From a virus (lineage: Duplodnaviria; Caudoviricetes), in the IMG/VR virus record IMGVR_UViG_3300043447_000100, positions 1 through 64,000 of that record: a DNA stretch of 64,000 nt; one strand, 5' to 3'. Below are positions 18,001 through 59,700 of this stretch, piece by piece. Numbering within the stretch: position 1 is the first letter of the stretch; the number at the start of each line of letters is the position of its first letter. The notes under the pieces are model-generated. The model saw nothing but the letters and a program-made list of their open reading frames with translations, was not told where the DNA came from and made no database searches. Made by a program: the position numbers and the translations under genes.

Positions 18001-18094
18001 TTAGAACATCTAGCGTTGCGGCTAGAAATTGCTGATTTGTCTCGGTCTTGAAGATTGATGGGAGAAAATCTAGTGTTCTGACTTGTTGTGCCAT
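92..18094 (-). CDS. Giant 6000-aa virion structural protein, probably a baseplate wedge/fibre-platform protein with FG-GAP-like propeller and CBM5/12-like repeats
   Basis: Uninterrupted 18 kb ORF just downstream of the gp6-like gene. FG-GAP-like motifs (GFGKVLTTSADGSKLIVGAP, YGKSVTTSRYGAEVFVGAP, FGYTVAMS..ILVGAP), about six W-x5-Y-x2-G-x2-V repeats, and repeated small beta modules (GLTAGTTYYV, GGLAVNTTYYI, PHGLVANDPITI). Confidence 0.8.
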   Translation of the reverse strand: MAQQVRTLDFLPSIFKTETNQQFLAATLDVLTSQPDMKTVQGYIGNRHGYAISPTDKYVVEPTKERSDYQFDPAVTFQKKDTSVTTDFIDYPGIVRALRNQGWTAQDHNKLFTNKLYSWDSFINLDKAVNFSQYYWLPLGPDAIKLSDTLDVTQIIGQKTYTTPSGLTLINGLKIDLGSNVKQEAYRNKAYYVQGVGTSIELIAVTEMLCTEITGGGMYIPWDNDPYDTTDWSITLYVPIQPDYITIDRASADRNAWSRSNRWFHQNVIDTHFKYNGYVTANQYNTQTRASRPIIEFQSDLRMFDSGTVSAGIVNFLDTRETNAMKNVNGASSFSVLSSVVRTSRSVTDFGIIVNDTTYLVKDMPVTFTALSGKLPTGLTAGTTYYVRQVDHVQRSIAVSTSTYEGGAPLVNVKQGEYNLRIVGESEIELGSGTRIVFASDEDERIRKTVFDVKRIKTNNVEKISLTPVVGVTVDTDSQIYIAQGPGDYLGTAWRWGTTPTGETGWIESQKKTAINQAPLFDAFDATGVSFSTYTNSAFSGTKLFSYTIGSSTATNDAVLGFSVEYSSPANTGDFLFTVNLNSDTFTYTNAGATVTKNISDGFIHQTVNGATVKRTGWVESVAQSQQYQINVQDITIATAMVTLDVLVSEQTSSWSPVQVYKNGDFISTADYTVTRNTKKNITNIVFDTELSAGDQVSVLFISEQVSPTSKFQIPSNMTNNPFNEQLKSVANGDLNNYYGSIFRNSPGLTGVPNGINNFSEAGDLTRYGTAIVQNSASLVLPATFLRNPEFNLVHALQHSAVEYSDYKAKIVELAAASDYSVRQSPAEILDDIIYRISSTKNEKNSFYWSDMLVSGSPYKTSTVTYEVDITTAVFKLSRVYDYTTANYYGLAVYLTTTSGSTEQLLRGRDYTVSTTDSSLLLTRAITRGSTVTVREYNQTWGSYVPNTPTKLGLYQAFAPRVVTEQQLDTVIYMIQGHDGSLTKLYGTFADGKFNDFRDIALLEFETRIFNNLKIAQPAAIGYADIFPGEWRKTHYTFEELLPAYTKNFLSWVGRNRISNWRKQTFIRNDKFSYNYGKSTNKLSGGLLKQGGWRGIYQWFYDTVDPARQPWQMLGLADKPTWWESRYGVAPYTSGNEVMWQDIADGLIWNDGNPIVNQRFVRPGLLDALPVNELGELVDPLERIVGNYDSLTFNRDWTVGDMGPTEAAYRRSSTWPFDLVKLLSTFRPADFYNLCADLDTYKYNSDLQQFVFNDRYRLDPRQLTVYGAGTAKHSYMNWVVDYIKRHGNSGQEQVQTALQNTDVRMIYKIGGFSDKQFLRFLTENTAPSATQTNLVIPDDSYSILLYDDVPVDTVVYSSVIIQKTNSGYQVWGNSLVDPYFHTVEPKAGLYEKITINRASVELSTVYDPTSTVPIAYGTEFYTTQGVSEFIRNYGRWQAEHGVIFDNLRGTDQVDWNLMIKEFLAWAQQEWEVGSTISLNPNAREFKAYKAGTVPQPLTLGDENFVLNQNLVPLAHQDMAVIRDNETLTVRILSDGDSVAFTNINLATIEHAVVFDNQTIFGDTIYSPASGLRQARLIIQGQKTANWSGYVNAHGFILNQSDIKEWSKGNKYAKGQIVTYKNEYWSAIELIEAGSDFDYTQWSQSNYDDIRQGLLPNPSTIASESIALYNPQQANLEQDEDLLAFGLIGFRPRKFFADAALTDTAQVRLYQQMIQGKGTKATAETFVGATPLQGELDYDVRENWAILNGQFGSVLNSNFVEVKLYKNLLTGNPSTIGFGDSSPAPTISTSINGVSKSATVSLVSMPSVGQKVAVGDTKLKDNVDVTGYSYQNELINFERPPVNANFLPLFTSAYNDERGLPTAGYVNIDDTDWQAYTLSDLNDVTDAVSKLYRGDYVWVANYKDTWNVFTPVSIGTTVSTVTNNFNKTVTVEFAQPHGLVANDPITIIDFNSNVDGYYQVSSVPSLSTIVLPITLAKTVKSLTGTGITFKLQAVRMAQASDLAKASNHVKYSEFASRLRWIDDDSTGNWAVYEGTPEYQYTYPKNYDFSTTVAQDTYSADAYYGTSVAYANDRVLTLGNNVLYANGGLVKFYTVSNDTPAITTYDVTMSLKDASVAQVVATCTYDITLNADGTRTVITDRAYIANPGTGFFMVDFGSSEKNNGITYYKLTEVTHADLIVANGVISVSDAVKSNKANTGNTTYTETQWVYLGGANCVFVYKFDGTTFHYVNKLQAPTSGWGFGKVLTTSADGSKLIVGAPLAVGTKGSNEGTVYFYDRASRSYIQDIIGKQVFTIETSIIDKNTTAKPRVGAVAVYINSELIPTTDYSFENYTTLRFNTAPPVGSTIYVDFSNLVLQQVTVSKNPNIGIQYGKSVTTSRYGAEVFVGAPYEMNNVDDHQNVQGAVYRWTNLGQRYGKVYATVSSTANVFGTIFIDGFAVPYDSQDMNDDTAIVALGYTASPRNRVAYQINSIEPTNVVADYSNTTDVITITNKPGTTATADDQIDLVGATMTDLTNLGITAYTNIQTIYDIDYDSVGQFGYTVAMSRLPGKLTDAILVGAPNDKSLSETTFDFTDDYEANDTIFDNGATTFVEETENAGSVYQYVYMPTAEESADKPGMFVFGQYCNPITQSAAEITARGAKATVSRYGEAIAYHENVIVIGSKNWYENGAGRVLRFTLGAEDPKSSTASVRHSTWYENKRGLPQVDANRLTSVSLYDTLTNSTLEYLDYIDPVQGKMLSAIEINSDYIGSHDPADYTSGVIWAKNKVGHVWIDTTELRMMNYNQTYHDAATDTIVADVAYNSKYFGKAFPGSTVGIYTWVESTVTPTDYQGSGYVTNLDKFVTTQYFDNSTNSTKYLFYFWVKNYDEIPEGKTISPANLAQYILDPKSSGIPFLVALTTNVIALFNTQDSIQDGSTALHLGYSIGSNPDQGHTDWSLIQDGDDGSFLQGLPLNVLDEPTGMYLKYLTSFMGLDLTGAVVPDPALPALARYGTSFRPRQSMFIDRALALKNFVQYANNVAAKYPISEIRGVYLLNQEQYITVEVTANSTSRLYISNSDGTKVTGLYAGQPITFKDNAYGGLAVNTTYYIKEASGVSTIGTDIYGQYIRLSATPGGSAIQLNDYFGSMSGKLFDTAEYWEYTYWWADGYSADTKVMFEVDSYTDLLTLSAGGLYVGATGTTTISDGLVVRVAKNGAGVNEIYVYSTADGWTRVGLQDSTIKIKSKLYTQTDPIPSKEIYYIVRWINEQLYENETTIERNQSLITMFNYIQSEALQDQNYLTWLNKTSLVDVEHTIRQLKPYKKYQRDATQLVEGYLNEVKPYHVHIKAFAFHYDDIETYQGSFTDFDLPSRYITSRAKFESPQLLLTNAAATADNQYTKDDAEWTQTIYQDWLANHGLSISNSQTAKVLVSSLTYLVKNTDIYMVLDETGVLPAFGTVKIGDEVIEYNKLDRKTNTISDLRRNTTYIKVLPHEAGTLVYLLPTLTNIMDEGRGYISAPKVSVYYDTTEYPYGVRTEAILHAHLESDYVRSVEVVEPGSGYPTLPEVRVSQSSINSFFNSTQVDHVLSQIYMVGHNFQDGDCVTVVNIQDDSATQGLKNYRYYYLKIVDDKHIALYDSYKDSLTGYTTTEIEYGVQSVTWSPTLMSDPLYVTYPNPIGGNPLVKSYPFITLEDETSIDNLPFRTGDYVRVTTERTPDVPEYYYVETIGVASTDLVESNYRSQQRIALHSTLEEARAGLNDTRVVVGSLLSISAVPETDKDRVNFAEGDQVAGTLGVTARVKIYTDNIPVREMKVAMKFDRTSFKSNATDWEASITRWGVGGWDSKDWSKGKYYSKGDLVVFSGSVFRANIDLKTDELTREFDFKYWDEIDGGDISLNALDRIVGFYKPRANMPGFTTSDMSQLMSGTKFPYQTVKDASFSEGKTYTFVPNQVDLDTNSITIYTTEPRVASYQEAIISVNGSSEFTTTRVPVAIACYTGNNAIILNDVATLAVGNKVRFVADLIDEEALDYNVPYTIASVDSGIRAITLTGVTITANATGWGSLVIDNTFSTTGTRTDAGTTTGGTITLATTANIATGYIVQFNTADVFGNIDGKKQFYVQSVESGNKIKIAETFGGPAVTYIDTDTRAPISPSTTPQPPMSITIVPYPANARGDYYASANARPTLETTYVTGDLVKAIYTSPTARTTSYYYARNVGNKITLHPTPNDATANLNKVTVPRGTLGRLVKPQTVIALADPIDDPIGTVTEVIYSDSYPQTDFGLINNVNYWMAVVDDNSVAIYESKDEAENDYNRVPLLTLGAGQLSTIVYDSLVGNPGMSEEIDIKGMDFEYGFSPEELVAGVVTDGINMTVKTIAGATWNQNLTAKGAVTTTNMAHTGFNMVKIKGAIQGAIKRKDGTVISGVSAISFRDVVANPVSVTVYRNVGITQTRLIPQTDNPGITAEYTVNWVDQYVEIVTPGTDTFDIVVYEYGNGVHLVRGTTDNYPLRSVKDYGKTNQYHSEIELDIPYSQIDLPSDENYWLSVMVHMGTSSSDAKRLTYITNFTDAAYGETDPASINYGHHYSIQPVRALDPVNDPFNPAKIVFNKFYVPTDTFVSFAIATNVLGHFVVGGTHGEVLENGVLKTLYNATAKQLEYQVPVVGDVTDIAIYKNDAILTPADYTAVTVGTTLTVTFADEDINFGDIIKVTDKRQGGISVPVTQHIVSTQGASSNFTETINLALRNVAITGTGGQFTCQSTQLSTDLTKLTMYVTLPSGTTYSGTGSISGFSTASSGSKIYKLSATNGKSSFTLVNEDGSAVTTTAGTTTGLVFTLAKEKTVQRTTLELTEFLGDDNYSAITVDRIENGIFRCASTTRLEEGMTITLTGTSEKFDNTKKYHQGDRIAGDGTNGTAGKVYSVNGNTIAGKGFTIGTGTHQWTLVGDLATIVGYNSPKVYYIAISDTVQSTDGYTYFKLSSYFGGTADVVTTDGYIAGMTFSTQNNLIVEINGLRYDGPAPTQVYRKIIHVDKNPQVSYPAPVYGISDFDIGYFTVQVNGAEIPQVDPADATKVNWNVNYDFQSGTFYQFDADFINANFFQDWDSALTYDIGYVVVVGSSLYRAVTSNTNKPPAANTPTDWALTSASEIFTGLFDDGTPFDNKFSFNVVFNPNETPLYENDIVTLSYQVPGETPPDLYTITTNANKIGGKINVLTQVFPTSTSTISVTTFGRTTDQKLSTQRITDATVSYIPVFNSTLAKTAGGFFKGLQIDSTQPPLVTFDNPHNLLNGQLVFVSGEGINPAFRMNNRKFYVSTVNYFDSSSVQDVTRQMYLYNVDPTVNRVWNNTTTYYDGDVVFLGSKYYVALKSNVNKNPTTEVLTWAETDFWVTGSSSLTARTPNTNSYVQLIDNFNPSLNIAKNSMVVQPQLLSDWQIVPNYQGTYSTWVNGQRYESNQYVQRDGVIYRSIVRTSTPPSAGIKFTNVDRLFVSVIDKDNDYLREYIPASKLQLQDINGVNTLIVEAEIVPGDKVLVTSFVPTASPNETRFRINQTWSTVTGTPNTPVIYRENAYTRTYITSVSYDADGIAESFKVKDPFALVSLATFSATGDYSARTVTFDTDAGLYATIIDGLESDRITNLKFTKPDGSSINTGFEWFTLTNVNTTKVYFYNNPGSVVYAQVASGNEVLINGENLRFKEINIDYTSPDFGKISGLQRGRDYTRSLAANDYTENTDVIAEHIVKYAQVQGVLEENKMSAKRAISTFYDRVVTRSITARDNSTGVYTFSYDTNGVNTIGTALNDRITQLSTGDKISFYNGATKCATFVNNINVANTVATTGKFNFLVSDNSDIRYAQVGSDITFTYTGNSKEVKYYNPVTRETSNVFTIVDSYYNTEYVEYTAASVAANKQDSSVPLVKKDIWTIEIAEPLNIDILDSSNPVMRANVQIFNEYTISSVVQNAGNVVITLNNVVEIDNIDPDTGDIFGNVTATFPTTIVADSANDSFSTASILRRVVDLPLVIETTGVAEFLNQQIR

Positions 18095-45721: not shown

Positions 45722-45748
45722 AAAAAAGAGGCCTTCGGGTCTCTTTTT
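45722..45748. terminator. Bidirectional intrinsic terminator between gp23 and the convergent endonuclease
   Basis: A-tract, AGAGGCC-UUCG-GGUCUCU stem-loop, U-tract. Confidence 0.88.
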
Positions 45749-46542
45749 CATTTATTATGTTTACATTTATCGCCGTGCCATCTACTATACATACCTGAGC
45801 TAACAATCTTATCGCAGTATGTGCATTGTTTCTTTATCTGTGATGGATGTTTACCAGTAGCAAGCATTGCGTTATTAGCAGCAGGTCCCAACAAGTTATG
45901 TATGCCAGCATCAATCATTCGTTTATTGTGTTCTGGGCCTAACCAGTTATGAGTTCCTTCTTCTATTCTTTTGGTATTAGTTAGACCACCAATAGCTGTC
46001 CCGTCTTCTCGTGTGCGCCATGGGTGTGTGCCTTCTCTGCTCCATTGTTTGGCTGGATTGTTCTCTCCTAGATTGATGTGAGTGCCTCGCTTCATCGCCA
46101 ACTTAGCATTACGACCATCTTTATTGGGATGATGCTCTAAAAATGCGGCAAGTGCTTCGGGGTCTCGATTCATCCAGTGTTTGTCTCCCCTTACGATTTT
46201 ATCAGGGTCTCGACGGGTCCAATGATTGTCGCCGCTAAGAGTGGCTGCTATCTCTGGGTTCTTCATCGGATTATCTTCACTAGTCCAGCCGACAGAACCA
46301 ATGGCGACATTCATGCAGTTTGGCTTACCAACATTCTCACTGAGATAACGCTGTTCGAGTTCAATAAGTGAATCTGTATCTTCTGCGTACTCCAGTATCT
46401 CCCGAGTAACATCAGTACGATTTTTTATAGAACGAGGCCAGTTGCCAGAACCAATATACCCATCATTGATATTGGACGTACTGTGTCTCCCGACATAGTA
46501 TTTGCCGTTCTTGTGAGTCGTCTTGTAGATGAAATGAATCAT
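45748..46542 (-). CDS. Free-standing Seg-like GIY-YIG homing endonuclease (~264 aa)
   Basis: HFIYKTTH..GKYYVGRHST...DGYIGSG, GTH/NH-W repeats, C-terminal CTYC...RWHGDKC; true start ATG 46542 (the ORF-track extension is promoter sequence). Confidence 0.88.
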   Translation of the reverse strand: MIHFIYKTTHKNGKYYVGRHSTSNINDGYIGSGNWPRSIKNRTDVTREILEYAEDTDSLIELEQRYLSENVGKPNCMNVAIGSVGWTSEDNPMKNPEIAATLSGDNHWTRRDPDKIVRGDKHWMNRDPEALAAFLEHHPNKDGRNAKLAMKRGTHINLGENNPAKQWSREGTHPWRTREDGTAIGGLTNTKRIEEGTHNWLGPEHNKRMIDAGIHNLLGPAANNAMLATGKHPSQIKKQCTYCDKIVSSGMYSRWHGDKCKHNK

Positions 46543-46548
46543 ATCACT

Positions 46549-46577
46549 ATTATAGCACACTTCTAACACGAAGTCAA
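46549..46577 (-). promoter_or_regulatory. Strong sigma70-type promoter TTGACT-N17-TATAAT with extended -10, 6 nt before the ATG
   Basis: Minus strand reads TTGACTTCGTGTTAGAAGTGTGCTATAATAGTGATATG. Confidence 0.85.
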
Positions 46578-46660: not shown

Positions 46661-48172
46661 ATGGCAACACGAGCACCAACGATTTCAGATGAACCATTAG
46701 CATCGCAACGTACAACAACTACGGCAACGACTGCTCGTGGCGCTGTGGCTGTAGACGCAGGCGCAGTTACGCAAACAGTATCAAGACGCTCTGTTACACT
46801 TGCCCCTACTACGATTCCTACATCAGCGGTTCAAGCAGACCCGCTACTACCAGCACAACAAGCCGCTATCGCCGCACAAACAGGCGCACCAGCAATCAAC
46901 CCGCAAAACATCGCACCTATCTCTGAGATTACCGGCGCTAATGTGATGCTTATTCAACCTGTTACGATACAAGAAATCGTAAACAAACCAGGCGGTACAA
47001 CTACTGGTGAAATTCAATATCTTGTTGGTAACTCTTTTGTTGCTGACCCTGACTTCAAGTATGACTCGCCAAGCGACACGCTATTAGTCAACGGCTCTAT
47101 CAGAGCAAACAACTTAACAACATTCGGCAAAGTAAACTTAGGTTACATCAGCAACATTGCTATCACAGGCGGTACTGCTAATCAAATCATTTCTCTCAAC
47201 GCTGATGGCACACTCAAGTGGATCAATCAATCACCACCACTAACATACAGCAACAGCAACGTAGCAAGTTATCTAACTTCAACATTCGCAAGTTATCTAA
47301 ACAACTATGTACCTGCGTATCACGGCAATCTAACAGTCAACAAGATTGCGGCTAACTCTATCACAGTAACGTCTGCTAACTTACACGTTACAGGCGGTGC
47401 TAATGGTCAGACACTACAAACAGACGGCGCAGGCAATCTAACATTCGTAACACCTTCATCATACGGCAACGGTGATGTGTACGCTTACATGCGCACGTAT
47501 CTACCTACAAACGCAGTAGATGTATCAGGCGCTAACATTGTAGCATCTACAAGTCTACGAACAACAGAACTAATCGCTAATGGTCAAGTGTATCTAGGTC
47601 ACTTAGACAACATTCGCATTGACGGCGGCTCTTCAGGTCAAGTTCTAGCAACTGATGGTGCTGGCGACTTAGTGTGGGTATCACAAGACAAGCTAAAGAA
47701 CGAACTAGCAGGCAGTGACACACAAATTCAATTCAATGATGCTAACGTTCACGGTGCCTCTGCTAATCTAACATTCAACAAAGCAACAAATACATTTACA
47801 ACAGATAATGTTGTTGCTAATAACATCACATTGGGTAATGCTACTGAATCAGTCAGAAACGAATTCTGGTTCAAGGCAGCTACTCATTCAACAGCTAACT
47901 CAGTCATTCTAGTAATGCCAGCCGCAAACGTAGCAGGTCTCGATGTAACAATCGTAGCTACTGAGGGCACGAACGCTAGAAAGATTAGTAAGATTTTGGT
48001 TGCTACATTGGGTAGCGTGACCAATCACTCCGAATACTCTACAAGGTATGTCGGTCCCAACCCCGGTGACTTCGATGTGAATCAGATCGGCCAAAACATT
48101 GCTCTCAGTGTTAAGCCGACCACAGCCAACACCGTAGTTTACAACATGATCGTAACAACATATAAAGATTGA
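46661..48172 (+). CDS. Fibre-like structural protein (503 aa)
   Basis: Three GG-x2-Q-x-L-x-TDG-x-G-x-L-x-W/F repeats, GSDTQIQFND linker, C-terminal domain shared with the next gene. Confidence 0.7.
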   Translation: MATRAPTISDEPLASQRTTTTATTARGAVAVDAGAVTQTVSRRSVTLAPTTIPTSAVQADPLLPAQQAAIAAQTGAPAINPQNIAPISEITGANVMLIQPVTIQEIVNKPGGTTTGEIQYLVGNSFVADPDFKYDSPSDTLLVNGSIRANNLTTFGKVNLGYISNIAITGGTANQIISLNADGTLKWINQSPPLTYSNSNVASYLTSTFASYLNNYVPAYHGNLTVNKIAANSITVTSANLHVTGGANGQTLQTDGAGNLTFVTPSSYGNGDVYAYMRTYLPTNAVDVSGANIVASTSLRTTELIANGQVYLGHLDNIRIDGGSSGQVLATDGAGDLVWVSQDKLKNELAGSDTQIQFNDANVHGASANLTFNKATNTFTTDNVVANNITLGNATESVRNEFWFKAATHSTANSVILVMPAANVAGLDVTIVATEGTNARKISKILVATLGSVTNHSEYSTRYVGPNPGDFDVNQIGQNIALSVKPTTANTVVYNMIVTTYKD

Positions 48173-48187
48173 AAGGTATAATAAATC

Positions 48188-50464
48188 ATGGCACAAACAG
48201 CATTTAATGTCGTCGGTGGTCTATCAGTCGGTAGCTCACAAATCCAAGTAATCGACGCCAACGGTAACCTAGTTCTAACGAACTCTAGTAACGTTGACTT
48301 GGGCAACGTAGCAAACGTACATATCGCAGGCGGCACATCAGGTCAACACTTGATGACTGACGGCAACGGTTCTCTAAGCTGGGCAACAGTATCAACAAGT
48401 GGTCTCTCAAACGGCACCACTCAAGTTGATATTGACGACAGTTCAGACATTCGTTTCTCTGTTGGCGGCAACGCTAACACGGCAGTATTCAACTCTAACG
48501 GCAACATCACTCTAAAGAGTGGCGCGGCACTAAAGTTTGGTAACACATCTACGATGATTCAGAACAGTGGCAACGATATCGTTATCACTCTCAACAGTAG
48601 TAACGCTCTAAGTGGCTTACAACTATCTGGCACAGGTCGTATCAAGGGCACTAACGGTCAAGTTATTGCTGTTGCTGGCACAGACACATTCAACATTGCT
48701 CAAAAGCTAACTGTTGGTTCTGTTACTGCTAACACAGGCATCAAACTAATCTCTAACGCCTCTTCAAGTCACGGCATTACAATTTTCCCAGGCACAAGTG
48801 CTAACTACAACTTAGTACTACCAGCATCAACAGGTGCTAATGGTCAAACTCTAATCACTGACGGCAATGGTCAACTATCATTCGCTGATATCGTTGAAGG
48901 CACTAACACACAAGTTCAGTTCAATGACAGTGGCTACATGGGCGCTGTTGCTGAGTTTACATTCGACAAATCAACAAACACACTAGCAACTACTAACCTA
49001 ACACTAGGCGGCAACGCTACAGTTGGCGGCACACTAGGCGTAACAGGCAACGTAAGTGTTGCTAACGTTGCGGCAAGTGGCGCTCTAGCAGTCACCGGCA
49101 ACACTACAGTTACAAACATCTCAGCTAGTGGCAACAGTGCGGTTACAGGCAACGCTACAGTAACAGGAACACTAGGTGTAACAGGCAACGCAAGTGTTGG
49201 TAACATCTCTGCTTCAGGTGCCGCATCTGTTGGTGGTAACGCTACAGTTACTGGTACTCTAGGCGTAACAGGCAACACTTCAGTAACAAACATTGCCGCA
49301 AGTGGCAACGCTACAGTAACTGGCAACGTGGCAGTAACTGGCGAACTAGCAGTAAGTGGCGATACAACAGTTGCTTATCTACAAGCATCTGACGGTATTA
49401 CAGTAACAGCAAGTGGCATTACAGTAACTGGCAACTCAAGTGTAACAGGCTCATTCCTAGTAACAGGTAACGCCGCCGCTACGGGCAGTCTAAGTGCTAC
49501 AGGTAACGTATCTGGCAACAACCTATCAGTAACTAACAACGCTAACATCGGCGGTACAGCTAACGTAGTTGGCGCAGCCGCATTCGGTAGTACAGTTGAT
49601 ATCGCTGGCAATACAACAGTAACTGGTAACCTAGTAGTTCAACAGAAAGCAAGTATCTCTGGTGATCTAGAAATCAGTGGTAACATTATCGTTAGTGGTA
49701 ACACTTCATATCAGAACGTAACAACAACAGCAACAGAAGACCCATTCATTATGCTTGGCGCTAACAACGCCGCAAACTTGGTCGAACTAGGCTTGTATGG
49801 TGTTTACAGTAACACAAACTACACTGGTTGGGCTCGTGATCACAACGATGGCATCTGGAAGTTGTTCAACACAACAGTAGCTCCTACTAACACAGTTGAC
49901 TGGGCTAACGTAACATACTCTACAGCTAAGTTCGGTAGTGTACAAACTACTGCTAACATCTCTGTTGGCAACGTAGCTAACGTTGGTGGTAACCTAAACG
50001 TATCAGGCGCAGCCGCTGTTACTGGTAACGTAACTGCTAACAACGTATCATTGACTAACAACATTGACGGTAAAGAAGCTATCTTCACTCAAGTCAGTGC
50101 TAACAAGTACATGATTGGTGACACACTACCAACATCATACATGGGCGCTACTACAGCGACTACAACTAGCATCACTGCTGGTCAAGTTATCGCTAAAGTA
50201 CCTGCGGTTGACGGTCAAGCTATTGAGTTCCGCATCAAAGGCATCGACGGCACTAACAAGTTCCAGACTTCTACAATCACTGCTCTAGTAGGCGTAGCCG
50301 CTAGTGACCAAGTTGACCACACAGAGTATGGCACAGTTATTCGTGGCTCAGCCGCTGGCTCACTAAACGTAGCAATCGTTGACTCACACGGTAACGTAGC
50401 TCTAACAGTATCACCAACAAGTAGCAACTCTACTGTTTGGACGGTACAATATCGTAGTCTATAA
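48188..50464 (+). CDS. Fibre-like structural protein with beta-helix repeats (758 aa)
   Basis: GNxxV hexa-repeats, TDGNG motifs, GTNTQVQFND linker, C-terminal domain paralogous to that of the 503-aa protein. Confidence 0.75.
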   Translation: MAQTAFNVVGGLSVGSSQIQVIDANGNLVLTNSSNVDLGNVANVHIAGGTSGQHLMTDGNGSLSWATVSTSGLSNGTTQVDIDDSSDIRFSVGGNANTAVFNSNGNITLKSGAALKFGNTSTMIQNSGNDIVITLNSSNALSGLQLSGTGRIKGTNGQVIAVAGTDTFNIAQKLTVGSVTANTGIKLISNASSSHGITIFPGTSANYNLVLPASTGANGQTLITDGNGQLSFADIVEGTNTQVQFNDSGYMGAVAEFTFDKSTNTLATTNLTLGGNATVGGTLGVTGNVSVANVAASGALAVTGNTTVTNISASGNSAVTGNATVTGTLGVTGNASVGNISASGAASVGGNATVTGTLGVTGNTSVTNIAASGNATVTGNVAVTGELAVSGDTTVAYLQASDGITVTASGITVTGNSSVTGSFLVTGNAAATGSLSATGNVSGNNLSVTNNANIGGTANVVGAAAFGSTVDIAGNTTVTGNLVVQQKASISGDLEISGNIIVSGNTSYQNVTTTATEDPFIMLGANNAANLVELGLYGVYSNTNYTGWARDHNDGIWKLFNTTVAPTNTVDWANVTYSTAKFGSVQTTANISVGNVANVGGNLNVSGAAAVTGNVTANNVSLTNNIDGKEAIFTQVSANKYMIGDTLPTSYMGATTATTTSITAGQVIAKVPAVDGQAIEFRIKGIDGTNKFQTSTITALVGVAASDQVDHTEYGTVIRGSAAGSLNVAIVDSHGNVALTVSPTSSNSTVWTVQYRSL
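49009..49330 (+). repeat. Intragenic repeats of GNATVxGTLGVTGNxSVxNIxASG
   Basis: Three clear copies plus partial ones; DNA repeats such as ggcaacgctacagt and ctaggcgtaacaggcaac. Confidence 0.75.
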
Positions 50465-50476
50465 TCTTTAGACAGC

Positions 50477-50484
50477 GATAAATA
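50477..50484 (+). promoter_or_regulatory. Late promoter GATAAATA
   Basis: Upstream of the 144-aa gene, abutting a terminator hairpin. Confidence 0.7.
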
Positions 50485-50535: not shown

Positions 50536-50970
50536 ATGGCATCAAAAAACTTCGTAGTCAATAATGGACTAACGTCAGGCAATATCGTGCTTGACGCCGC
50601 AACCGCAAACATCACTGGCGTAGCTACGGTAACAGCTACAGCCGTATCAGCTAACACCATCTCTGCTACGGGCAACGTAACGCTAAGCGGCACACTCTAC
50701 AGAACACCGTCAACCGCTAACGAATACTTTGAGCTATTCGACTCGGTTACAGCCGACACTCGTGCTTACAATGGTGATGGTACACTAAACACTAAGACAA
50801 AGACACTGCCATCTTCCTTAGTGCTGGTTCAGAAATACAACTATGACGCTAACTTAGCAGTGACTACAAAAGTCATTTATGCTAACTCAGTTAGTGCTCC
50901 TAACATCAGAGCAACAGCAACATACAACTACGACAGTAGCGGTACACTAACAAGCATCACTATCGCTTAA
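50536..50970 (+). CDS. Small structural/adaptor protein (144 aa)
   Basis: N-terminal KNFVVNNGL motif like that of the 758-aa protein; C-terminal YD-like beta hairpins (YNGDGTL, YNYDANL, YNYDSSGTLTSI); GGGAG RBS. Confidence 0.7.
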   Translation: MASKNFVVNNGLTSGNIVLDAATANITGVATVTATAVSANTISATGNVTLSGTLYRTPSTANEYFELFDSVTADTRAYNGDGTLNTKTKTLPSSLVLVQKYNYDANLAVTTKVIYANSVSAPNIRATATYNYDSSGTLTSITIA

Positions 50971-50980
50971 GGATAGAACG

Positions 50981-52462
50981 ATGACATTCGCTTTAGTAGG
51001 TTCAACAATCACTCAGAGTGGCACAGACAACGCTCTACCAACAACCAGTGGCAACGGCTTCACAGTCACTACTGCTAACGGTATCAACACGGTCAGCTTT
51101 GGCACTAACACACTTGTTATTACAGGCACGTGTACCGTAGCATACAATCAGGTGCTAACTAACACAAGTGGCGGCGGCATCAACATTCAAGCTGGCGGCA
51201 CTCTCACATTCAACGGCGAACAAACAATCAACGGCGTAGCACAGCCAGTAGGCGGCGTATTGGCAAACATTGTATCTACTGGTATCGCCGCACCTCTAGG
51301 CGCTATTCGTCTAACATCTACAAACGTGAACTCACGAGCAATGCTTGTTGTTCGCAACTGTGAGATTCGTGTAAACAGTAGTGAATGGGCTTCAATCTCT
51401 GCTAACGATAACGGGTTGAACACAATCAGAACAGAAGGTGACTTTGCTTTCATTCAAGCAGACCTATCACTAACAGGCACCAACAAGAAGCGTGTTCGTA
51501 TCAACAGTGCTAACCCTGTGTTAGACTTACAAGCAACTAATACTCGTAGTGGTATGTGGTTCAACTTTGGCGCGGCACAAACAAGTGTCAAGGGCTATAC
51601 ACCACTGAACGTAGATGGTCCAGAAATCAACGTGGCATCCCTAACAACTGCTAACCAAGTTGTGCTGGATGGTTATAACATCAACGGCGTTGTTGGTAGT
51701 TACTACACTAACGCTCATATCGTTATCTTCGGTGGCGCTTGGTGTAAGTTGAAGAACTTTCATCGTGGCACTAATATGACTTGGTATCCTAGTGATGGTA
51801 CTACTACTCAAAACAACTTTATTGAGTGGAGCACAGGCTTACGCTTTGAAGTAAAAGACGCTATCGGCAACAACATTCAAAGTGCTAAGGTCTATGTTCC
51901 TGCTAATACAAACACCATGACCTTTAGACCAAAAGGACAAACATCGGCTGTTCGTAGTCAGCCAACACTCAACTTATCAACCGACGCCACTGGTGTTGTT
52001 ACTAGTGAATACACATACGCTTGTGGCTTATCTACAGGTGGTGGCACTAACATCAACGCTAACACTTCTACTTACTTCTGTCCAACGACAACAGCTGGTG
52101 CCGAAGCAACTACATACAAGATTCGTCACTACGGCTATGGAGCAACAAGTGGCACTATTACGCTTGCTCGTTCTACAGATGCGGTTATTACAGCCGCTCT
52201 ACCAGCAGATGTTTCAGCGACCCTCACAGAAGCGGCAGCGGCAGCACTAACAGGTATCACAATCACTAAGGCAACGGGAACACCGTCTCCTACAAATCAA
52301 CACACGATTACAGTAACAGCAAGTGCTAACAGAACCTTAGACCAAATCTATTGTTTCTGGAAGCAATGGTTCTGCCAGTTCGCTAACTTTGATGTGAACG
52401 ATGTATTGGTCGAATCTAACAACAAACTAATCTTGGGTAATTACAAGATTGTAATGGCATAA
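50981..52462 (+). CDS. Putative adhesin/receptor-binding head module A (493 aa)
   Basis: Beta-rich, parallel-beta-helix-like N-terminus; C-terminal ~80 aa shared with the next gene; AAGGA RBS. Confidence 0.65.
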   Translation: MTFALVGSTITQSGTDNALPTTSGNGFTVTTANGINTVSFGTNTLVITGTCTVAYNQVLTNTSGGGINIQAGGTLTFNGEQTINGVAQPVGGVLANIVSTGIAAPLGAIRLTSTNVNSRAMLVVRNCEIRVNSSEWASISANDNGLNTIRTEGDFAFIQADLSLTGTNKKRVRINSANPVLDLQATNTRSGMWFNFGAAQTSVKGYTPLNVDGPEINVASLTTANQVVLDGYNINGVVGSYYTNAHIVIFGGAWCKLKNFHRGTNMTWYPSDGTTTQNNFIEWSTGLRFEVKDAIGNNIQSAKVYVPANTNTMTFRPKGQTSAVRSQPTLNLSTDATGVVTSEYTYACGLSTGGGTNINANTSTYFCPTTTAGAEATTYKIRHYGYGATSGTITLARSTDAVITAALPADVSATLTEAAAAALTGITITKATGTPSPTNQHTITVTASANRTLDQIYCFWKQWFCQFANFDVNDVLVESNNKLILGNYKIVMA

Positions 52463-53920
52463 AGGAATAACATGGCAGACGTAAGCATAACAACAAACGA
52501 CACATTCTCAACTCATACAGCAGATACTAACTTTACTCGTCCTACTAACGCTGGTGAGACAATCGTTATCAACGCTGGTCAAGTAAACATCGGTGCCTCA
52601 ACTCAAGCAGGTCCAATCACAGTCAACATTGACCAAGACTTAGTGTGTAACAGACTTAGAATTCTAGGTCATTCATCTAACGCTACTAACAGAACAACAG
52701 TCAACATTGGTATGGCTGAGACTGGAACTACTAACGGCACTATTGGTCAGGGCGTAGTTATCAAGTGTTTGACAGATGCCCAATGGACAGCAGATACTGG
52801 TTCTATCAACACTGGTGGTTACACAACAGTCAACATCTACAATAGTATTCTAAAGAGCACGGGCAACGGTCCTGCTATCGGTCAATATCAACCGACTCAA
52901 GATCAGGGCAACGTTCGTATGAACATCTACAACTCACGTTTTGAGAACTATGCGGCAAGTGACTTCCGAGATTACGGTGACGGTGGTGAACCTATGATTG
53001 CTCCTTCGTCAAGATTACAAAACGTAGTGTTTCGTGGTTTCACAAAAGTATGGTTCAACGGCTCACCTACCTCAGACAGTTACGGTATCGACATGGTTTC
53101 ATATGACCCTACTGGTGGTACACTAATGGGTCTTGCTATTGCTGACGCTACTGTTGACGTTACTTTCAACAAGTGTTCAAGTGACCGTTACGGTATTCAG
53201 CAAGCAACAACACGTACTCAAACCCTAAACTTGATTGACTGCCAGTTGACTGATAGTATTGTTATCAACCAAAACGTCACTAACAACCGAGTATTCAACT
53301 TCTCTAAAACGGTTGGTAGTAAAGTCGTGACAGGTGCCGCTACATACCCGCTACGTATTCTAAACAGCGTGGGTGTAGTTCAGACTATTACTCAAACACC
53401 AGGTAGTGAAACAACAGCCGCTATCAACTGGTTGACGCTAACTAATCCAGGCACTAACAACGCTGGTTTCGCTACAATGAGTGCCGCTAACGTCCTATCT
53501 GCTACAAGTGATACTAACTTTACAATCGTTCGTCGCTTGCCACTAAAGATTCAACTCAACGACTATCGCTACAAGCGACTTGAGCGAGTTATTGACGCTA
53601 ATGCCTTATCACTAACAACCAGCGCCGCTAAAGACGCTATTCTACTAACAGGTGTAGCCGACTTAGATAAAGCCGCTACGCTAACACAAGCCGCCGCCAC
53701 CGCACTAACTGGCATCACAATCACTAAAGCAACCGGCACACCTTCTCCTACAAACCAACACACGATTACTGTAACAGCCTCTGCTAACAGAACATTAGAC
53801 GATATCTATTGTTTCTGGAAAAACTGGTGGGTACAAGATGCTCAATGGGACGTAACAGACGAAATAACAGTTAGCGGCACAAGAATGATCTTAGGTAACT
53901 ACAAGATCGTCATGGCATAA
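52244..53920 (+). repeat. Diverged direct repeat (52244-52462 and 53702-53920, offset 1458) encoding the shared C-termini
   Basis: 33 identical residues ALTGITITKATGTPSPTNQHTITVTASANRTLD, then IYCFWK and terminal ILGNYKIVMA-stop; DNA differences in the identical blocks are synonymous. Confidence 0.9.
52472..53920 (+). CDS. Putative adhesin/receptor-binding head module B (482 aa)
   Basis: Different beta-helix-like N-terminus, same C-terminal module; AAGGA RBS. Confidence 0.65.
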   Translation: MADVSITTNDTFSTHTADTNFTRPTNAGETIVINAGQVNIGASTQAGPITVNIDQDLVCNRLRILGHSSNATNRTTVNIGMAETGTTNGTIGQGVVIKCLTDAQWTADTGSINTGGYTTVNIYNSILKSTGNGPAIGQYQPTQDQGNVRMNIYNSRFENYAASDFRDYGDGGEPMIAPSSRLQNVVFRGFTKVWFNGSPTSDSYGIDMVSYDPTGGTLMGLAIADATVDVTFNKCSSDRYGIQQATTRTQTLNLIDCQLTDSIVINQNVTNNRVFNFSKTVGSKVVTGAATYPLRILNSVGVVQTITQTPGSETTAAINWLTLTNPGTNNAGFATMSAANVLSATSDTNFTIVRRLPLKIQLNDYRYKRLERVIDANALSLTTSAAKDAILLTGVADLDKAATLTQAAATALTGITITKATGTPSPTNQHTITVTASANRTLDDIYCFWKNWWVQDAQWDVTDEITVSGTRMILGNYKIVMA

Positions 53921-53921
53921 C

Positions 53922-53929
53922 AATAAATA
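53922..53929 (+). promoter_or_regulatory. Late promoter AATAAATA for the 784-aa gene
   Basis: Motif followed by AAGGA RBS. Confidence 0.6.
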
Positions 53930-53948
53930 GCACAATAAGGATACTAAA

Positions 53949-56303
53949 ATGATTTCAGGAACAACATTTACGGGCGTAGAAACATCAGGCAACGTTGACT
54001 TGGCTGGGGATACCTCAGAATCCAACATCACGCTTGGCGCTGGTAACTACTACAACGTCCCAGCTACATTCACAAACGTAACGTTCGATACTACAAACGG
54101 CAACGTTATGCTGGAGATGGACCGAGCCAACACCACTTATATGTTCAATAGCTGTACATACGTAGGCACCACAAACAAGATCAAAATCTTGCCTAATGCC
54201 GCTAACATCGTAATTTCTACATCTATTGCCAACTCAAACTTTGCTACACAAGCAGGTGGCTCAGGTAGTTACACAATCACAACGCCTAAAGCAACGGTCA
54301 AGTTCACTGGACACAAAGCAAATAGCCGTATCGTTGTTCGTCAGAGTGGCTCAGTCACCGAAACAACTAAAGCAACTACAACTGCCGACGCTGTTATGAC
54401 TACTCAGTACGACTTGACAACTACAATCACATACCGTGTATTCTGTGCTGGCTACAAACCAGTATCAGGCTCACTAACATTCTCAGCAAGTGGTCAAAAT
54501 ACAATCACAATCGCTCAGGAAGTTAGTGACGGTTATTCAACACCTACAGTAACAGTACGCACAATCAATGGCACCACAATCAATGCTGGCGGCGCAGTTG
54601 ATATCAGCACAACTGGCAGCACAATTGGCTTTACTAATGCTCTTCCTGACCTACGTGAAGCTCTAAGTGCTGTTGCCAGTGCTTGGGTTGACCAATCTAC
54701 TCTATACAATCTAGATACAAGCTACCCATTTGACTTAGACTCTGTTTCTGGTATTGAAATCTTAGAACCATGGGCATTAGTAGATGATGATAACTCTCAA
54801 AATGAAGGTTACATCAGAATGAACGCCACAACCGGCGCAATTTCTCTAATGAGAATGTGTATTATTACTACTGGTAACACAGACCCAGTTCGTTTACGTA
54901 TTTACAACGGCGCTACGGTACAACAAGACATCTCATTGACTGTGCAACCCATCAACACTCTTGTGACCATCGATCATACTCAAACAACAGTCACTGCTCG
55001 CATGGAAATCAAGAATGCCGATGAAGTATTCATTGTAAACACTGAAACATTCATTGCTAATGGCAAATCACAGAAGAAGTTCTACAAGAACAGTAACACC
55101 GCGTTTACTCAAAACGTTGATGCTACTATTACTGGCACAGTTCGCTACGATGTGGCCATTACAAAAGTCGTTACCGCTACTCGAAATGACGTTGACGCTA
55201 ACGGTACTACCCGTACATTCGCTAAAGCGTTCCAGATTTACAACGATACTACAACCCGTCAAGACCTATTGAATCAAATTGCGGCTATCATGGCGGCTGA
55301 TGACTCATTCAACTCTAAGACCTATACTCTAAACGGCAACATTATTGTTCTGCCACAGGGCTGCCAAGTCATTTACGCCAACGGCAACATTGTCAGTGGT
55401 CAGTTGACAGCGTTCTTGACAGTCAGAGACAACTCAGGTAACGCTTTCGTATTCCCACAACAGCGCCCACTAGTTATCTCTCACGGCGGCACATTCACTG
55501 GCTCTATCAACTATGCGGTTGTAAACGCCGCTGGCAACGTTATCACCGACGCTGATGGTGTAGCAGTGCAGGGTTCTATTGCTCAAAACGCTTCCATCAA
55601 CCGAGGCATCCCTACAAACGTAGATACTGCTCTAACCGTGTACTTTTCAGCCAACGGATGTCAGCCTGGCAGTGCCTCAGGAACCCTGATCCTAGCTGGC
55701 TTGACCTTCTCTCTAACTCCATACGACGAAACAGTAATGTTGTACAGTAACGAAGCTCAAGCAACCGACGATATCAATGCTGGTACCCGTGCTTGGAATA
55801 CGGAGATTGATAACATCACTATCGACTGGACAAACAAGGTTATAACAGTACCTAACTCAATCCTAGACTGTGAAATCAACTTCCTATACCGCAAGTGGAA
55901 GAAGTCTGTTGACGCTGATACTACTAAGTTGAGCTACGGTATTGCCCTAGTCGGTACAAACCAATCAAGAGCACCTACCGCTACTAACAACCAGTATCTA
56001 TGGAACCCTGAGTGGTCATTTGACAACAACTGGGCCGTAAACTGTGCCGCTAACCGCTCAGTAAGCTCACCACTACAGTTGAGTGCTTCTAACATCGACC
56101 GTAATGATACCGCTAACCGCAACGGCGTTGTTTATGTGTTCCCTCTAGCCAACGGCTCAGCGCCGGTTCTACGCTTGGTAGTTGGTACAAGTCAGGAATT
56201 CCAGGTAGACACGACTAACAAGTTGACTGCTATGACTGATGACTTGACAACAACCCTAGAAAAGCTAGACGTACTCAAGCGTAATCTAACAAACTTGATG
56301 TAA
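53949..56303 (+). CDS. Multi-domain beta-rich virion protein (784 aa) with Ig/transthyretin-like segments and a C-terminal coiled coil
   Basis: YRVFCAGYKP and VYFSANGCQP beta-sandwich-type motifs; helical tail LTAMTDDLTTTLEKLDVLKRNL. Confidence 0.6.
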   Translation: MISGTTFTGVETSGNVDLAGDTSESNITLGAGNYYNVPATFTNVTFDTTNGNVMLEMDRANTTYMFNSCTYVGTTNKIKILPNAANIVISTSIANSNFATQAGGSGSYTITTPKATVKFTGHKANSRIVVRQSGSVTETTKATTTADAVMTTQYDLTTTITYRVFCAGYKPVSGSLTFSASGQNTITIAQEVSDGYSTPTVTVRTINGTTINAGGAVDISTTGSTIGFTNALPDLREALSAVASAWVDQSTLYNLDTSYPFDLDSVSGIEILEPWALVDDDNSQNEGYIRMNATTGAISLMRMCIITTGNTDPVRLRIYNGATVQQDISLTVQPINTLVTIDHTQTTVTARMEIKNADEVFIVNTETFIANGKSQKKFYKNSNTAFTQNVDATITGTVRYDVAITKVVTATRNDVDANGTTRTFAKAFQIYNDTTTRQDLLNQIAAIMAADDSFNSKTYTLNGNIIVLPQGCQVIYANGNIVSGQLTAFLTVRDNSGNAFVFPQQRPLVISHGGTFTGSINYAVVNAAGNVITDADGVAVQGSIAQNASINRGIPTNVDTALTVYFSANGCQPGSASGTLILAGLTFSLTPYDETVMLYSNEAQATDDINAGTRAWNTEIDNITIDWTNKVITVPNSILDCEINFLYRKWKKSVDADTTKLSYGIALVGTNQSRAPTATNNQYLWNPEWSFDNNWAVNCAANRSVSSPLQLSASNIDRNDTANRNGVVYVFPLANGSAPVLRLVVGTSQEFQVDTTNKLTAMTDDLTTTLEKLDVLKRNLTNLM

Positions 56304-56624
56304 TCACAGGCGTATATCGTCTAACCCGACAGTAGCATCAACAGTCAATTCGTACTGTTGATGCTCTTTTTCTTTGATGTGCTTGAAATGTAGGCGGCTA
56401 CAGCAAGCACATATACTACGACCTTCTACCAAGTCCATCTGACAAGCATCCGTGGCTTCAAATCCACACCGTTCGCACTTGAGTGAGACTTCACGCTTCT
56501 TGCGGTACTTAGCACTGTCACAACTGCTACAGTATTTGCGCCACAGACGAACACCAGTAACACTTTTACCTGCACTGCGCCCTGGTCGTTCGCCACATTG
56601 CTCACACATTGGTCGTTTATTCAT
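56304..56624 (-). CDS. Small double zinc-finger protein (106 aa), degenerate HNH-like
   Basis: CEQC, CSSC, CERC, CACC; true start ATG 56624 because the ORF-track extension overlaps the next gene and its promoter. Confidence 0.75.
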   Translation of the reverse strand: MNKRPMCEQCGERPGRSAGKSVTGVRLWRKYCSSCDSAKYRKKREVSLKCERCGFEATDACQMDLVEGRSICACCSRLHFKHIKEKEHQQYELTVDATVGLDDIRL

Positions 56625-56629
56625 AAACT

Positions 56630-56698
56630 TATTTAGTTTTGTCTTCGTTCGTATAGAAGACATTCCAACAGTCGTTCCATATCCAAAATGAATAAATA
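56630..56698. promoter_or_regulatory. Divergent late promoters: ACTAAATA (-, 56630-56637) and AATAAATA (+, 56691-56698), with a 7-bp inverted repeat (56640-56662) between them
   Basis: Motifs seen directly; TGTCTTC...GAAGACA. Confidence 0.6.
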
Positions 56699-56724
56699 CA
56701 TGATAAAGGCAGAGAACAACTACA

Positions 56725-59700
56725 ATGTCAAAGCAAATCATTAACTTAGGCTCTTCAGCAAACGACGGAACAGGTGATCCGTTACGAGTTGCGTTTGAGA
56801 AGATCAATAACAACTTCAGTGAACTGTTCAATACGGCCATGCCTAACGGCCCGGACGGCAGTATTCAGTATCGTGCTGGCAACGACCTAACCGACGCTGC
56901 CTATCTTGGCGGCACATATGTAGCCATCGGCAAGCCTAACCGCGTTCTAACAAGTACAGACGCATCTACCTGGGACACTGGCTCAACACCTACCTCTGCT
57001 GACCTAAACTCACTTGTATCAGACGGCTATAATATCTATGGCGTAGGCGACTCCGGCACAATCGTAAGCACAACTACTGGCACAACCTGGACCACACAAA
57101 CTTCAGGCACAACTGAAGACCTGTATTTTATCGCAGTCAACGCCGCCGGTAATCAATTTGTAGCAGTAGGCGCTAACGGCACAATTCTAACCTCTTCAAT
57201 CACAGCGGGCGCAGTAGCAACAGCCTGGACCACACAAACTTCTCCTGTAACAACAGCCCTACGCTCTGTTGCCCATGACGCAATACTAAACGTATGGGTA
57301 GCAGTAGGCGACAGTGGTGTTGTTCTAACTTCTACAACCGGCGCTACCTGGACTCAAGCAGTAGTACCTGTAAGCGTAGCATACACTGGCGTTACCGCAT
57401 ACAACGGCTACTTCTTAGTCGTAGGCGCATCAGGCACAGTATTAGAAACTGCTGACACAATCACTTGGACAAATAGAACGGGCACGACTACTGAAAATCT
57501 AACAGGCGTCACCTCAATTTCAATCCCTGCTGTACCTACACCAATTCAAACAGCGTTTGCTGTTGGCGATAACGGTACCATCATTAGCAGTCCATTCAAC
57601 ATGGGCTTTACAGCATGGGACGCGACTACTTACCCGTCAACAACTACTAATGATCTCTACGGCGTAGTCAACCTCAACGGTATGCTACAAGCGATGGGCT
57701 ATCGTGGTACGGTAGTTCAAATGATTGACGGTGCGTTAGCATCAGACGATATTGACGCAGGCTTGTCAGGCAGTGCTAAACTAATCTTTGATGAAGCGGC
57801 TAACTTAGTTTCAATCGCTTCTAATATCGTACCTCAAACAGACGTAGCATGGTCACTTGGTGCTAACGGCAACGCATGGGGCAACATTTGGGTCTCTGGC
57901 GCAAGCGGCTTACACGTAGGTGAAGTAGACATTCGAACAAGTCTAAACACAGTAACCTTACACACTACAGGTAACGTAGCAAACTTAGCAAACTTATCAG
58001 TCAACACGCTAACAGCCGCCGGCGGCATCAACGCACCTAACTTGACTGTTGCTAACCTAGACGTAACTAACATTGCTAACATCAACATCATTGATGCTAA
58101 CACTGCTACTATTGATGAACTAACTTCATCAAACATCACAACTGGCAACCTAACCTCCGCTAACGGTACATTCACATCCGACGTATCAATCGCAGGCAAT
58201 CTAACAGTTGCGGGCAACTCATTCATTTCGCTTGCTAACAATACACAAACCGGTAACTTAGCGGTTGTTGGTAACGCTCGTGTTCTAGGCAATCTACTTG
58301 TTGATGATGATATCAGAGCAGACTTCTATTACGGTAACGGTGTCAATCTAACAGGTATCACTAAGGGCGCTAATGGTCCAGCGGGCACTATTCAGTTCGC
58401 TCTAGGCGACGGTGCTAACTTCTCATATGACGCTACGCTCTACTGGTCTAATGACGCTACTCGAACACTTTACTCACCTAACTTTGCTGGTAACTTCATC
58501 GGTAACTTGTCAGGCAATATCAATGCCAACGCAATCACAGCCAACTACATTGATGTAAACATTCAAGCAAACATCGCATCACTCTACGCAGAGTATGCTA
58601 ACATCAACGGCGAACTCGATGTTATCGACATTACTACTACCGGCAACATCGTAAGCGGGGGCAATCTATCAGTTGCCGGTAGTACTTCTATTACTGGCGA
58701 CATTACTGCCGCACAAGCAACATTTGCAAACGTAAATACGGGCAATGTTAGAGTTACCGCAAACATCTTAGCACAGAACGTCACTGCTAATGCTAACGTA
58801 TCAGCCGCAAACGTTATTGCCACTCGTATTGAATCAGCAACAGTTACTGCTACAACATCAGTAACAACACCGCTAATCACCGCCACTGCCGGTACAATCA
58901 CAACAGCAACTGGTACAACGCTAAACTACACAACAGCAACGATTCCTACAATCAATGCTACAACAGTCACAGCCGCAACATCAGTAACAGCACCTGAGTT
59001 CTACGGCAATCTAAACGGCAACGTTACTGCTACTCGTGCTACAATCACAGGTAACTTAGATGTAGGCAACGTCAACATTCTAACTAGTGCTGGTTCATTC
59101 AACGGCAATCTAAACGGCAACGTAGTCGGTACAACTGGTACATTCTCAGGCACAATGACTGCCGCTATCAGTGACTTAGGTATTGCTACTGCCGATTCAC
59201 TAACAACGCCAGCGATTACAGTTGACGATATCAATGTAAACACAGCACTAGACGCTCCTCTAGCACGTATCACACAACTAAACGTTGGTAATACCACTGC
59301 TACCGGTAACATCACTGCTACTAACTTTATCGCTAGTGGCGCTTTCCGCGGTTCACTAGTTGGTAACGTAACAGGTAACGTAACAGGCAACGTAGCAGGT
59401 AACATTGTATCAACAGGTACATCAACATTTGCTAACGCTTCATTCGGTAACATTACTGCCGTCGGCAACGCTCAGATTACTAATCTAACGGCGACTACTA
59501 CAACATTCGGTACAGCAAACGTCAACGGCAACTTACGTGCGGGCAACATCGACGGCGGTAACTTAGTTCGTGCTAACTACTTCGAAGGCGTATTCACAAC
59601 AGCGTCAGCAGAACAACCTAACATCACGCTACTAGGTACACTACAGCAACTACGTGTTCAAGGTACTAGTAACTTTGCTGGCAATATCACAGCGGGCAAT

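Follow-up and report, generated by a model that had tools for sequence, protein, structure and literature searches.

Two putative spike heads with a common C-terminal module precede one separately encoded body in an uncultured T4-like jumbo phage

The range of hosts that a phage can infect depends on modular receptor-binding proteins, and the routes by which one phage carries several specificities make use, to our knowledge, of anchors at the N-terminus, of gp10-like branching domains or of DNA switches. Here we describe a gene cassette of an uncultured T4-like jumbo phage (a myovirus) that appears to represent a different route, the steps of which can still be read in its relatives. The cassette lies in the first 64 kb (the whole stretch that was analysed, called the window here) of the 183.7-kb IMG/VR record IMGVR_UViG_3300043447_000100. 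Three of its genes, all on the plus strand, are our main subject: head A (493 amino acids (aa), 50981..52462), head B (482 aa, 52472..53920) and the body (784 aa, 53949..56303). Fission of a one-piece spike followed by the addition of a second head is well supported, and would probably let the two different heads share one stalk. The order of events runs from a one-piece spike, as in the relative P0013, through fission, as in the loci L003, L006 and L007, to the second head of the window.

Anchor-branch dual receptor-binding systems have been described for E. coli phage G7C (gp66/gp63.1), for Klebsiella KP32- and KP34-like phages and for the K1-5 adapter (PMC6872550). As in the arrangement proposed here, each particle carries two beta-helix spikes of different specificity, a short conserved element docks non-covalently on a conserved domain, and the parts are encoded by adjacent genes and exchanged by recombination. 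Those systems, however, dock the secondary spike by a peptide at its N-terminus, which is received by a T4 gp10-like domain located close to the N-terminus of the primary spike. In our locus a conserved C-terminal domain of ~90 residues is found on both heads, docking is predicted, with the N-terminus of a non-helix stalk as candidate partner, and the arrangement came about when a single chain was split into two genes. Pfam and PHROGs gave no match to a T4 gp10-like domain in head A, head B or the body, and no such fold was among the structure matches listed, in searches that did not take the module by itself.

The branched L-shaped tail fibres of the T5-like phages DT57C and DT571/2, composed of LtfA and LtfB, have genetic and functional support (PMC4728585). 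There too, the single protein of a close relative (T5 Ltf) is replaced by two gene products, of which one serves to attach the other and each has a role in recognition; unlike our case, one LtfA is combined with one LtfB, two alternative N-terminal parts do not occur, and the protein families are unrelated to those studied here. In the T4 long tail fibre, the consecutive genes gp34-gp35-gp36-gp37 give rise to consecutive fibre segments, which are expressed from late promoters and held together by non-covalent joints from C-terminus to N-terminus. This is the layout that we propose, but it comes with no relation in sequence or fold, and no alternative paralogous segment competes for one joint in T4. 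The invertible tail-fibre segments of Mu and P1 and the diversity-generating retroelements (DGRs) vary the C-terminal part of a fibre by DNA inversion or mutagenic retrohoming. The outcome, several specificities per fibre locus, is the same as the one considered here, whereas our locus encodes both variants next to each other, and they differ in the N-terminal part.

A common module and the fission of a one-piece spike

The preliminary description of this DNA had reported that the 493-aa and 482-aa proteins have unlike N-terminal parts and colinear C-termini, and every detail of this was confirmed. The sole significant BLASTP alignment between the two proteins joins A379-493 to B367-482 (116 aa, 61% identity, E 2e-32), and profile-profile comparison aligned A402-493 with B390-482 only (probability 99.4%). 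We refer to this paralogous region as the module; it occupies 52184..52459 in head A (residues 402-493, delimited by BLASTP, profile-profile comparison and an AlphaFold2 (AF2) model) and 53639..53917 in head B (residues 390-482, delimited by BLASTP and profile-profile comparison). The longest identical run is 33 residues (ALTGITITK...NRTLD), and IYCFWK and the last ten residues, ILGNYKIVMA, are also identical. At the DNA level the module appears as a 154-nucleotide (nt) direct repeat of 83% identity (52217-52370 and 53675-53828), and these two copies are the only ones in the whole 183.7-kb record. The DNA comparison of the locus found no inverted repeats, which rules out a DNA inversion switch.

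Within the 33-residue run, 11 of the 33 codons differ synonymously (synonymous divergence dS 0.50, nonsynonymous divergence dN about 0), while over the last 92 codons of A and B dS reaches 1.17 and dN/dS is 0.23. The module protein is therefore conserved by purifying selection, and the A/B copy is not recent, as had been proposed from the synonymous changes alone. The identity between the two modules is patchy. The patches PSPTNQHTITVTASANRTLD and ILGNYKIVMA are the same in A and B of this genome and differ between lineages, but the patch between them is specific to head type, reading CQFANFDV in A-type and VQDAQWDV in B-type heads. The B-type protein P0004 has a tail (...LGNYRITTA) that otherwise belongs to A-type heads, those of L004 and L007, and in the module tree head B of the window pairs with P0004, another B-type head, and not with head A. 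Together with the dS of 1.17, this grouping rules out a recent duplication of A's module into B; the patchy identity stems from gene conversion long ago or from selection to fit a shared partner.

The proteins related to the heads allowed the history of the cassette to be traced. Of 1.84 billion cluster representatives, 34 matched a profile of the module (motif TGITxT...TLDxIYxxWKxW...LGNYxI) at E<=1e-3, heads A and B scoring E 1e-57 and 1e-53. The single-chain layout of this undescribed viral family consists of a beta-helix, a transthyretin-like sandwich, the ~90-residue module and a variable C-terminal extension. In about 25 of the 34 representatives the module is accordingly internal (roughly residues 350-530) and is followed by a further 220-750 residues, whereas in the window, in L003-L007 and in P0008 nothing follows the module in the same chain, the extension being encoded by a gene of its own. 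Because the module is internal in most relatives, it is not a terminal chaperone released from the chain; an intramolecular chaperone of the Peptidase_S74 type, for which Pfam also gave no match, was rejected on these grounds.

A single open reading frame (ORF) spanning the head-body junction, which the idea of a split adhesin calls for, was found in P0013. This protein has 1283 aa, to be compared with 493 + 784 = 1277 in the window, carries the module at 431-537, and aligns from 634 to 1281 with body residues 153-780 at 31% identity (E 3e-83), its polypeptide running unbroken through the window's cut site. The P0013 cluster has four 1283-aa members on four contigs, so that the fusion cannot be put down to faulty assembly. 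In a maximum-likelihood tree, 36 modules fell into two clades with 100/99 support, of which one is entirely fused and the other mixes split forms with the fused P0013, P0014 and P0036. Fused forms thus stand both as the outgroup of the split clade and inside it, and fission is therefore the parsimonious direction, with the fused state ancestral. The earlier suggestion that an ancestral adhesin was split stands on P0013 and on this tree, but its further claim of a split in mid-fold does not. The module is a complete, compact and confidently modelled domain, and two relatives, P0015 and P0017, end their chains 7 residues past it, so the cut coincides with a domain boundary.

Among the fused relatives the body-type extension occurs in P0013 only, the others carrying at least three other extension types, and no further fused form with body homology was found. 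Pfam and PHROGs assigned no family to ten fused relatives, with the exception of P0038, a weak outlier with beta-helix and endosialidase matches, and P0043, whose F5/8 type C matches lie below Pfam's cut-off. Where fused relatives have neighbours, these are tail fibre, minor tail and tail proteins; the loci of P0013, P0008 and P0017 were not found in viral contigs, nor that of P0016 in genome contigs. Exchange of parts is also visible in this group. A 1044-aa protein (L014:6624-9758) matches P0027 (L008:8001-11033) from residue 424 on at 76%, with the same module and extension behind a different head, and several other loci match over residues 1 to ~600-720 only, with the same head and module ahead of a different extension. 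From these patterns it follows that the module is a recombination joint in one-piece relatives too.

Five related loci (L003-L007) were compared with the window. L005, an independent assembly of the same strain, has head A, head B and body in the same order (94%, 99% and 99% identity, respectively). In the other four a head is followed directly by a body: L003 (head A 87%, body 44%, partial), L006 (90% and 37%), L007 (66% and 34%) and L004, in which the 5' end of the A-like head is cut off (58% and 36%). Two head copies are thus present in the window and L005, and head B is absent from L003, L004, L006 and L007. As all five loci place head before body and four do so without B, the head-body pair is the conserved unit and head B a lineage-specific insertion. 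A further candidate pair is P0008, a third head type, and P0011, a body type (55% identical to the body); their clusters share contigs of identical size (22757, 26822 and 9271 nt), and the two therefore very probably belong together. The comparison also overturned the notion of one shared body as the constant part of the system, because the body is the fastest-evolving component, at 34-44% identity where head A retains 66-90%.

The loci are mosaic on a finer scale as well. Against L006, DNA identity is 88-100% over the 144-aa gene that opens the cassette (p144) and the N-terminal part of head A, falls to about 70% in the module and to about 50% in the body; this drop at the module indicates that module and body were inherited as a unit. 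Relative to L005, a near-identical strain, divergence is confined to 50580-51740, that is p144 and the helix of head A (L005:7000-8170), with 70-92% DNA identity, dS 0.65 and dN/dS 0.22, while the remainder is 98-100% identical. The window helix is nearer to that of the more distant L006 (91%) than to that of L005, and the pattern suggests that recombination exchanged just the helix of the head.

Predicted folds and expression signals

Structure comparison of the AF2 model of head A bore out the beta-helix-like character that had been noted for its N-terminal region. The model has an overall predicted local distance difference test score (pLDDT) of 79. Residues 1 to ~350, with the N-terminal family signature ITQSGTD, are modelled as a right-handed parallel beta-helix of the pectate-lyase-like kind, matching alginate and pectate lyases and the tailspikes Kp32gp38, Kp7 gp52 and CBA120 TSP2 with VIA Z 9-11.6 over 220-240 aligned residues. 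The fold predicted for head A is that of tailspikes and polysaccharide depolymerases. It is joined by a transthyretin-like beta-sandwich at about 285-410 (Z 9.3, root-mean-square deviation 1.7 A) and by the module, which is modelled with pLDDT about 90 as a compact domain of the alpha/beta class. By sequence, no Pfam family reached E<=0.1 for A or B, Pfam and PHROGs together gave no family for A, B, body or p144, and the PDB gave no match; Foldseek against the PDB returned nothing below E 0.02 for head A. Deposited phages held no match for the locus region, head A, the body, P0027 or P0014.

The one cultured phage with a relative of head A is Syn5, a T7-like podovirus of Synechococcus. Its gp54, a 622-aa virion 'structural protein' (EF372997 gene 54), was matched by head A in BFVD with E 4e-16 and a TM score of 0.57, and also by the family profile (E 2.4e-13) and by a profile of the N-terminal ITQSGTD motif (E 1.8e-15). 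Head A and gp54 have the signature and the beta-helix in common, and the segment of gp54 that follows the module position resembles that of the fused relatives; the module profile did not detect the junction region of gp54, and gp54, unlike head and body, is a single chain. We conclude that head A and gp54 are distantly homologous. The locus also defines a new conserved domain family without a Pfam or PHROG entry, which extends over T4-like jumbo phages, smaller environmental phages and, distantly, Syn5.

Head B differs from this pattern. Its N-terminal 389 residues are unrelated to head A, also at the profile level. In the ESM Atlas this part gave scores of <=0.87, which serve as leads only and include a weak beta-helix match at 0.85, and it was not found in viral contigs. 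Two B-type homologues, P0002 (93%) and P0004 (69%), retain the module.

The body is the C-terminal half of the ancestral protein. In its AF2 model (pLDDT 67), three transthyretin/CnaB/pilin-like beta-sandwich domains are found at about 112-195, 300-370 and 503-595, along with an alpha/beta region and a long C-terminal helix (749-783). Foldseek against the PDB gave low-TM matches only (0.07-0.11, best E 2.4e-4). The first ~50 residues of the body are its most conserved part, at 54-68% identity compared with about 30% elsewhere, and residues 1-111 (53949..54281) are predicted to be unfolded in the monomer (pLDDT 28-39). This prediction fits a segment that needs a partner in order to fold, and conservation and AF2 confidence mark residues 1-111 as the candidate partner of the module.

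Expression signals separate the body from the heads. The T4-type late-promoter core ATAAATA occurs 16 times in the window, of which only 4.3% is non-coding, and 11 of the 16 copies stand no more than 60 nt upstream of the start of a gene on the same strand. One copy (50478..50484, plus strand) lies 52 nt upstream of p144 and is the probable start of a p144-headA-headB transcript. A second (53923..53929, plus strand) lies 20 nt upstream of the body start, and none precedes A or B. The separate promoter and ribosome-binding site that had been ascribed to the body are thus both present, and AGGA-type ribosome-binding sites stand 5' of B and of the body. ATAAATA is absent from the 9-20-nt head-body junctions of the single-head relatives. 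An extra body promoter would be in keeping with a demand for body copies equal to that for heads A and B combined.

Proposed docking of the heads on the body and competing explanations

On balance we favour the reading that the three genes are a fission product plus an added head, and that the heads dock non-covalently on the body of a virion appendage. The genes would then encode parts of one appendage on the virion surface, a tailspike-like receptor-binding complex. In the clade of the window the ancestral gene was cut exactly after the module, which left a head and a separately translated body in the form of a chain of beta-sandwich domains; head B, with its unrelated N-terminal part and the same module, was inserted between head A and the body in the window lineage. 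Each head would bind, through its module, the conserved N-terminal ~55-110 residues of the body. Such docking of both heads is plausible and would be the most economical mechanism. The particle would carry A-body and B-body complexes, and the late promoter before the body would raise body supply to match the two heads.

More tentatively, the module and the N-terminal segment of the body may form a natural split-protein connector, onto which any module-bearing head could plug after translation to give mixed or alternative spikes. The patches PSPTNQ...RTLD and ILGNYKIVMA would form the putative contact surface, through which both heads stay compatible with the resident body. If such a connector exists, a second specificity could be gained by inserting one module-bearing head gene, without inversion, a DGR or an N-terminal anchor. 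If the joint does mediate assembly after translation, it would also explain why recombination breakpoints cluster at the module, and it would offer a compact natural connector of ~90 residues for swapping spike heads.

Several observations weigh against the docking that we favour. In the small number of lineages compared, module and body N-terminus do not co-vary in any simple way: the latter is nearest to L004 and L007 (68%), while the module is nearest to L003 and L006 (71-72% vs 60-63%). A profile of the first 60 residues of the body gave no significant match to the fused relatives, and a profile of the 70 residues after the module, built from every fused relative except P0013 (24 proteins) and compared with all reading frames of the window, did not match the body. 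Both junction profile tests having failed, it is P0013 by itself that speaks for continuity across the cut, and the likeness of QSGATFTG to ISGTTFTG is for the same reason not used as evidence. The low pLDDT of body residues 1-111 could stem from a shallow alignment (9 sequences), and head B is without the N-terminal signature ITQSGTD of the family. Finally, gp53 and gp54 may be the horn proteins of Syn5, which would place gp54, the one cultured relative, on the capsid and not on the tail.

Some of the same facts would be expected if the module were a self-contained domain for folding, oligomerisation or attachment to the virion, and if the heads and the 784-aa protein had become independent appendages after fission. 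Heads A and B would then have the module in common because they are assembled by one and the same step or attach to the particle at an identical site, and not because they dock on the body. The completeness and compactness of the module, the relatives that end right after it, the missing co-variation, and the at least four unrelated extension types that it precedes in fused relatives, which argue that it is not tailored to one partner, all agree with such an account. Yet head and body remain adjacent in every locus with context, even where bodies are only 34-44% identical, module and body have a common inheritance that sets them apart from the N-terminal part of head A, the body N-terminus is best conserved and is predicted not to fold alone, and the two segments were covalently adjacent in the ancestral chain. 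We consider independent appendages rather unlikely. Somewhat less likely again is an appendage on the capsid, resembling a head fibre or 'horn' and serving in decoration or reversible adhesion instead of primary receptor binding, a location to which the logic of splitting and docking could still apply. The match of head A to Syn5 gp54 in fold, family profile and N-terminal motif profile would agree with it, as would the position of the cassette just 3' of a gp23-like major head gene; a 2014 paper by Raytcheva et al., cited in PMC4102127, states in its title that two novel Syn5 proteins compose the horn. Against a capsid location stand the tail fibre, minor tail and tail genes around the fused relatives, the fibre-like neighbours in the window, where a gene with a tail-protein N-terminus follows the cassette, and the match of the beta-helix to tailspike depolymerases.

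Two further explanations are very improbable. The pieces might be rejoined into one chain, A to B or head to body, by readthrough or another form of recoding, a possibility already raised because A and B are in frame across TAA and a gap of 9 nt. That observation holds, and the A-to-body junctions of L003 and L006 are likewise in frame across TAA + 9 nt, but the frame is not kept elsewhere: the B-to-body gap of 28 nt is out of frame with three more in-frame stops, and the junctions of L004 and L007 (20 nt) are out of frame with another TAA. Every head-body junction of the related loci, with gaps of 9 or 20 nt, has a stop, its own AGGA-type ribosome-binding site and an ATG, and an A-B fusion would place the module in mid-chain ahead of a second head, an order seen in no relative. 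Nor is head B at all likely to be a non-functional remnant or an assembly artefact of the repeated module. Assembly programs may be led astray by repeats, and four of the related loci have no head B; however, the independent assembly L005 has the order A-B-body with B 99% identical, and the repeat copies, at 83% DNA identity, are too unlike to be collapsed or duplicated in assembly. The B ORF is moreover intact, with a ribosome-binding site of its own, and its B-type homologues, 93% and 69% identical, keep the module.

Genomic setting of the cassette

The completeness of the record was estimated at 52%, and its T4-like character is evident from PHROG matches (E 1e-61 to 1e-257) to a gp55-type late sigma factor, gp46/47 and the gp20 portal. 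Further T4-like PHROG matches were to a gp21 protease, a gp23-like head protein and a gp6-type baseplate wedge, and a baseplate hub is also encoded. The cassette sits in a series of fibre-like late genes 3' of the gp23-like head gene. Its first gene, p144 (144 aa, 50536..50970, plus strand), is 97-98% conserved in L005 and L006.

Directly upstream lie two fibre-like proteins of 503 aa (46661-48172) and 758 aa (48188-50464) with a common C-terminal domain of ~85 residues (33% identity, E 5e-5), a second instance at this place of unrelated fibre proteins with a common terminal domain. On the other side, a 178-aa ORF on the minus strand (56304-56840) ends at the base adjoining the body stop codon. 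It has several CxxC pairs, is zinc-ribbon-like and belongs to no PHROG family. It starts opposite a 1924-aa fibre gene and overlaps the first 116 nt of that gene and its late-promoter motif, and its matches to L005 fall in two frames (81% and 92% identity), a sign of an indel. A Seg-like homing endonuclease (PHROG 314, E 5e-23) is encoded at 45748-46569 (minus strand), after the major head gene and ahead of the fibre cassette. Near the start of the window, a single ORF of 6000 aa (92-18094, minus strand) encodes a putative giant virion protein, with a late-promoter core 32 nt upstream, and adjoins the gp6-like baseplate wedge gene.

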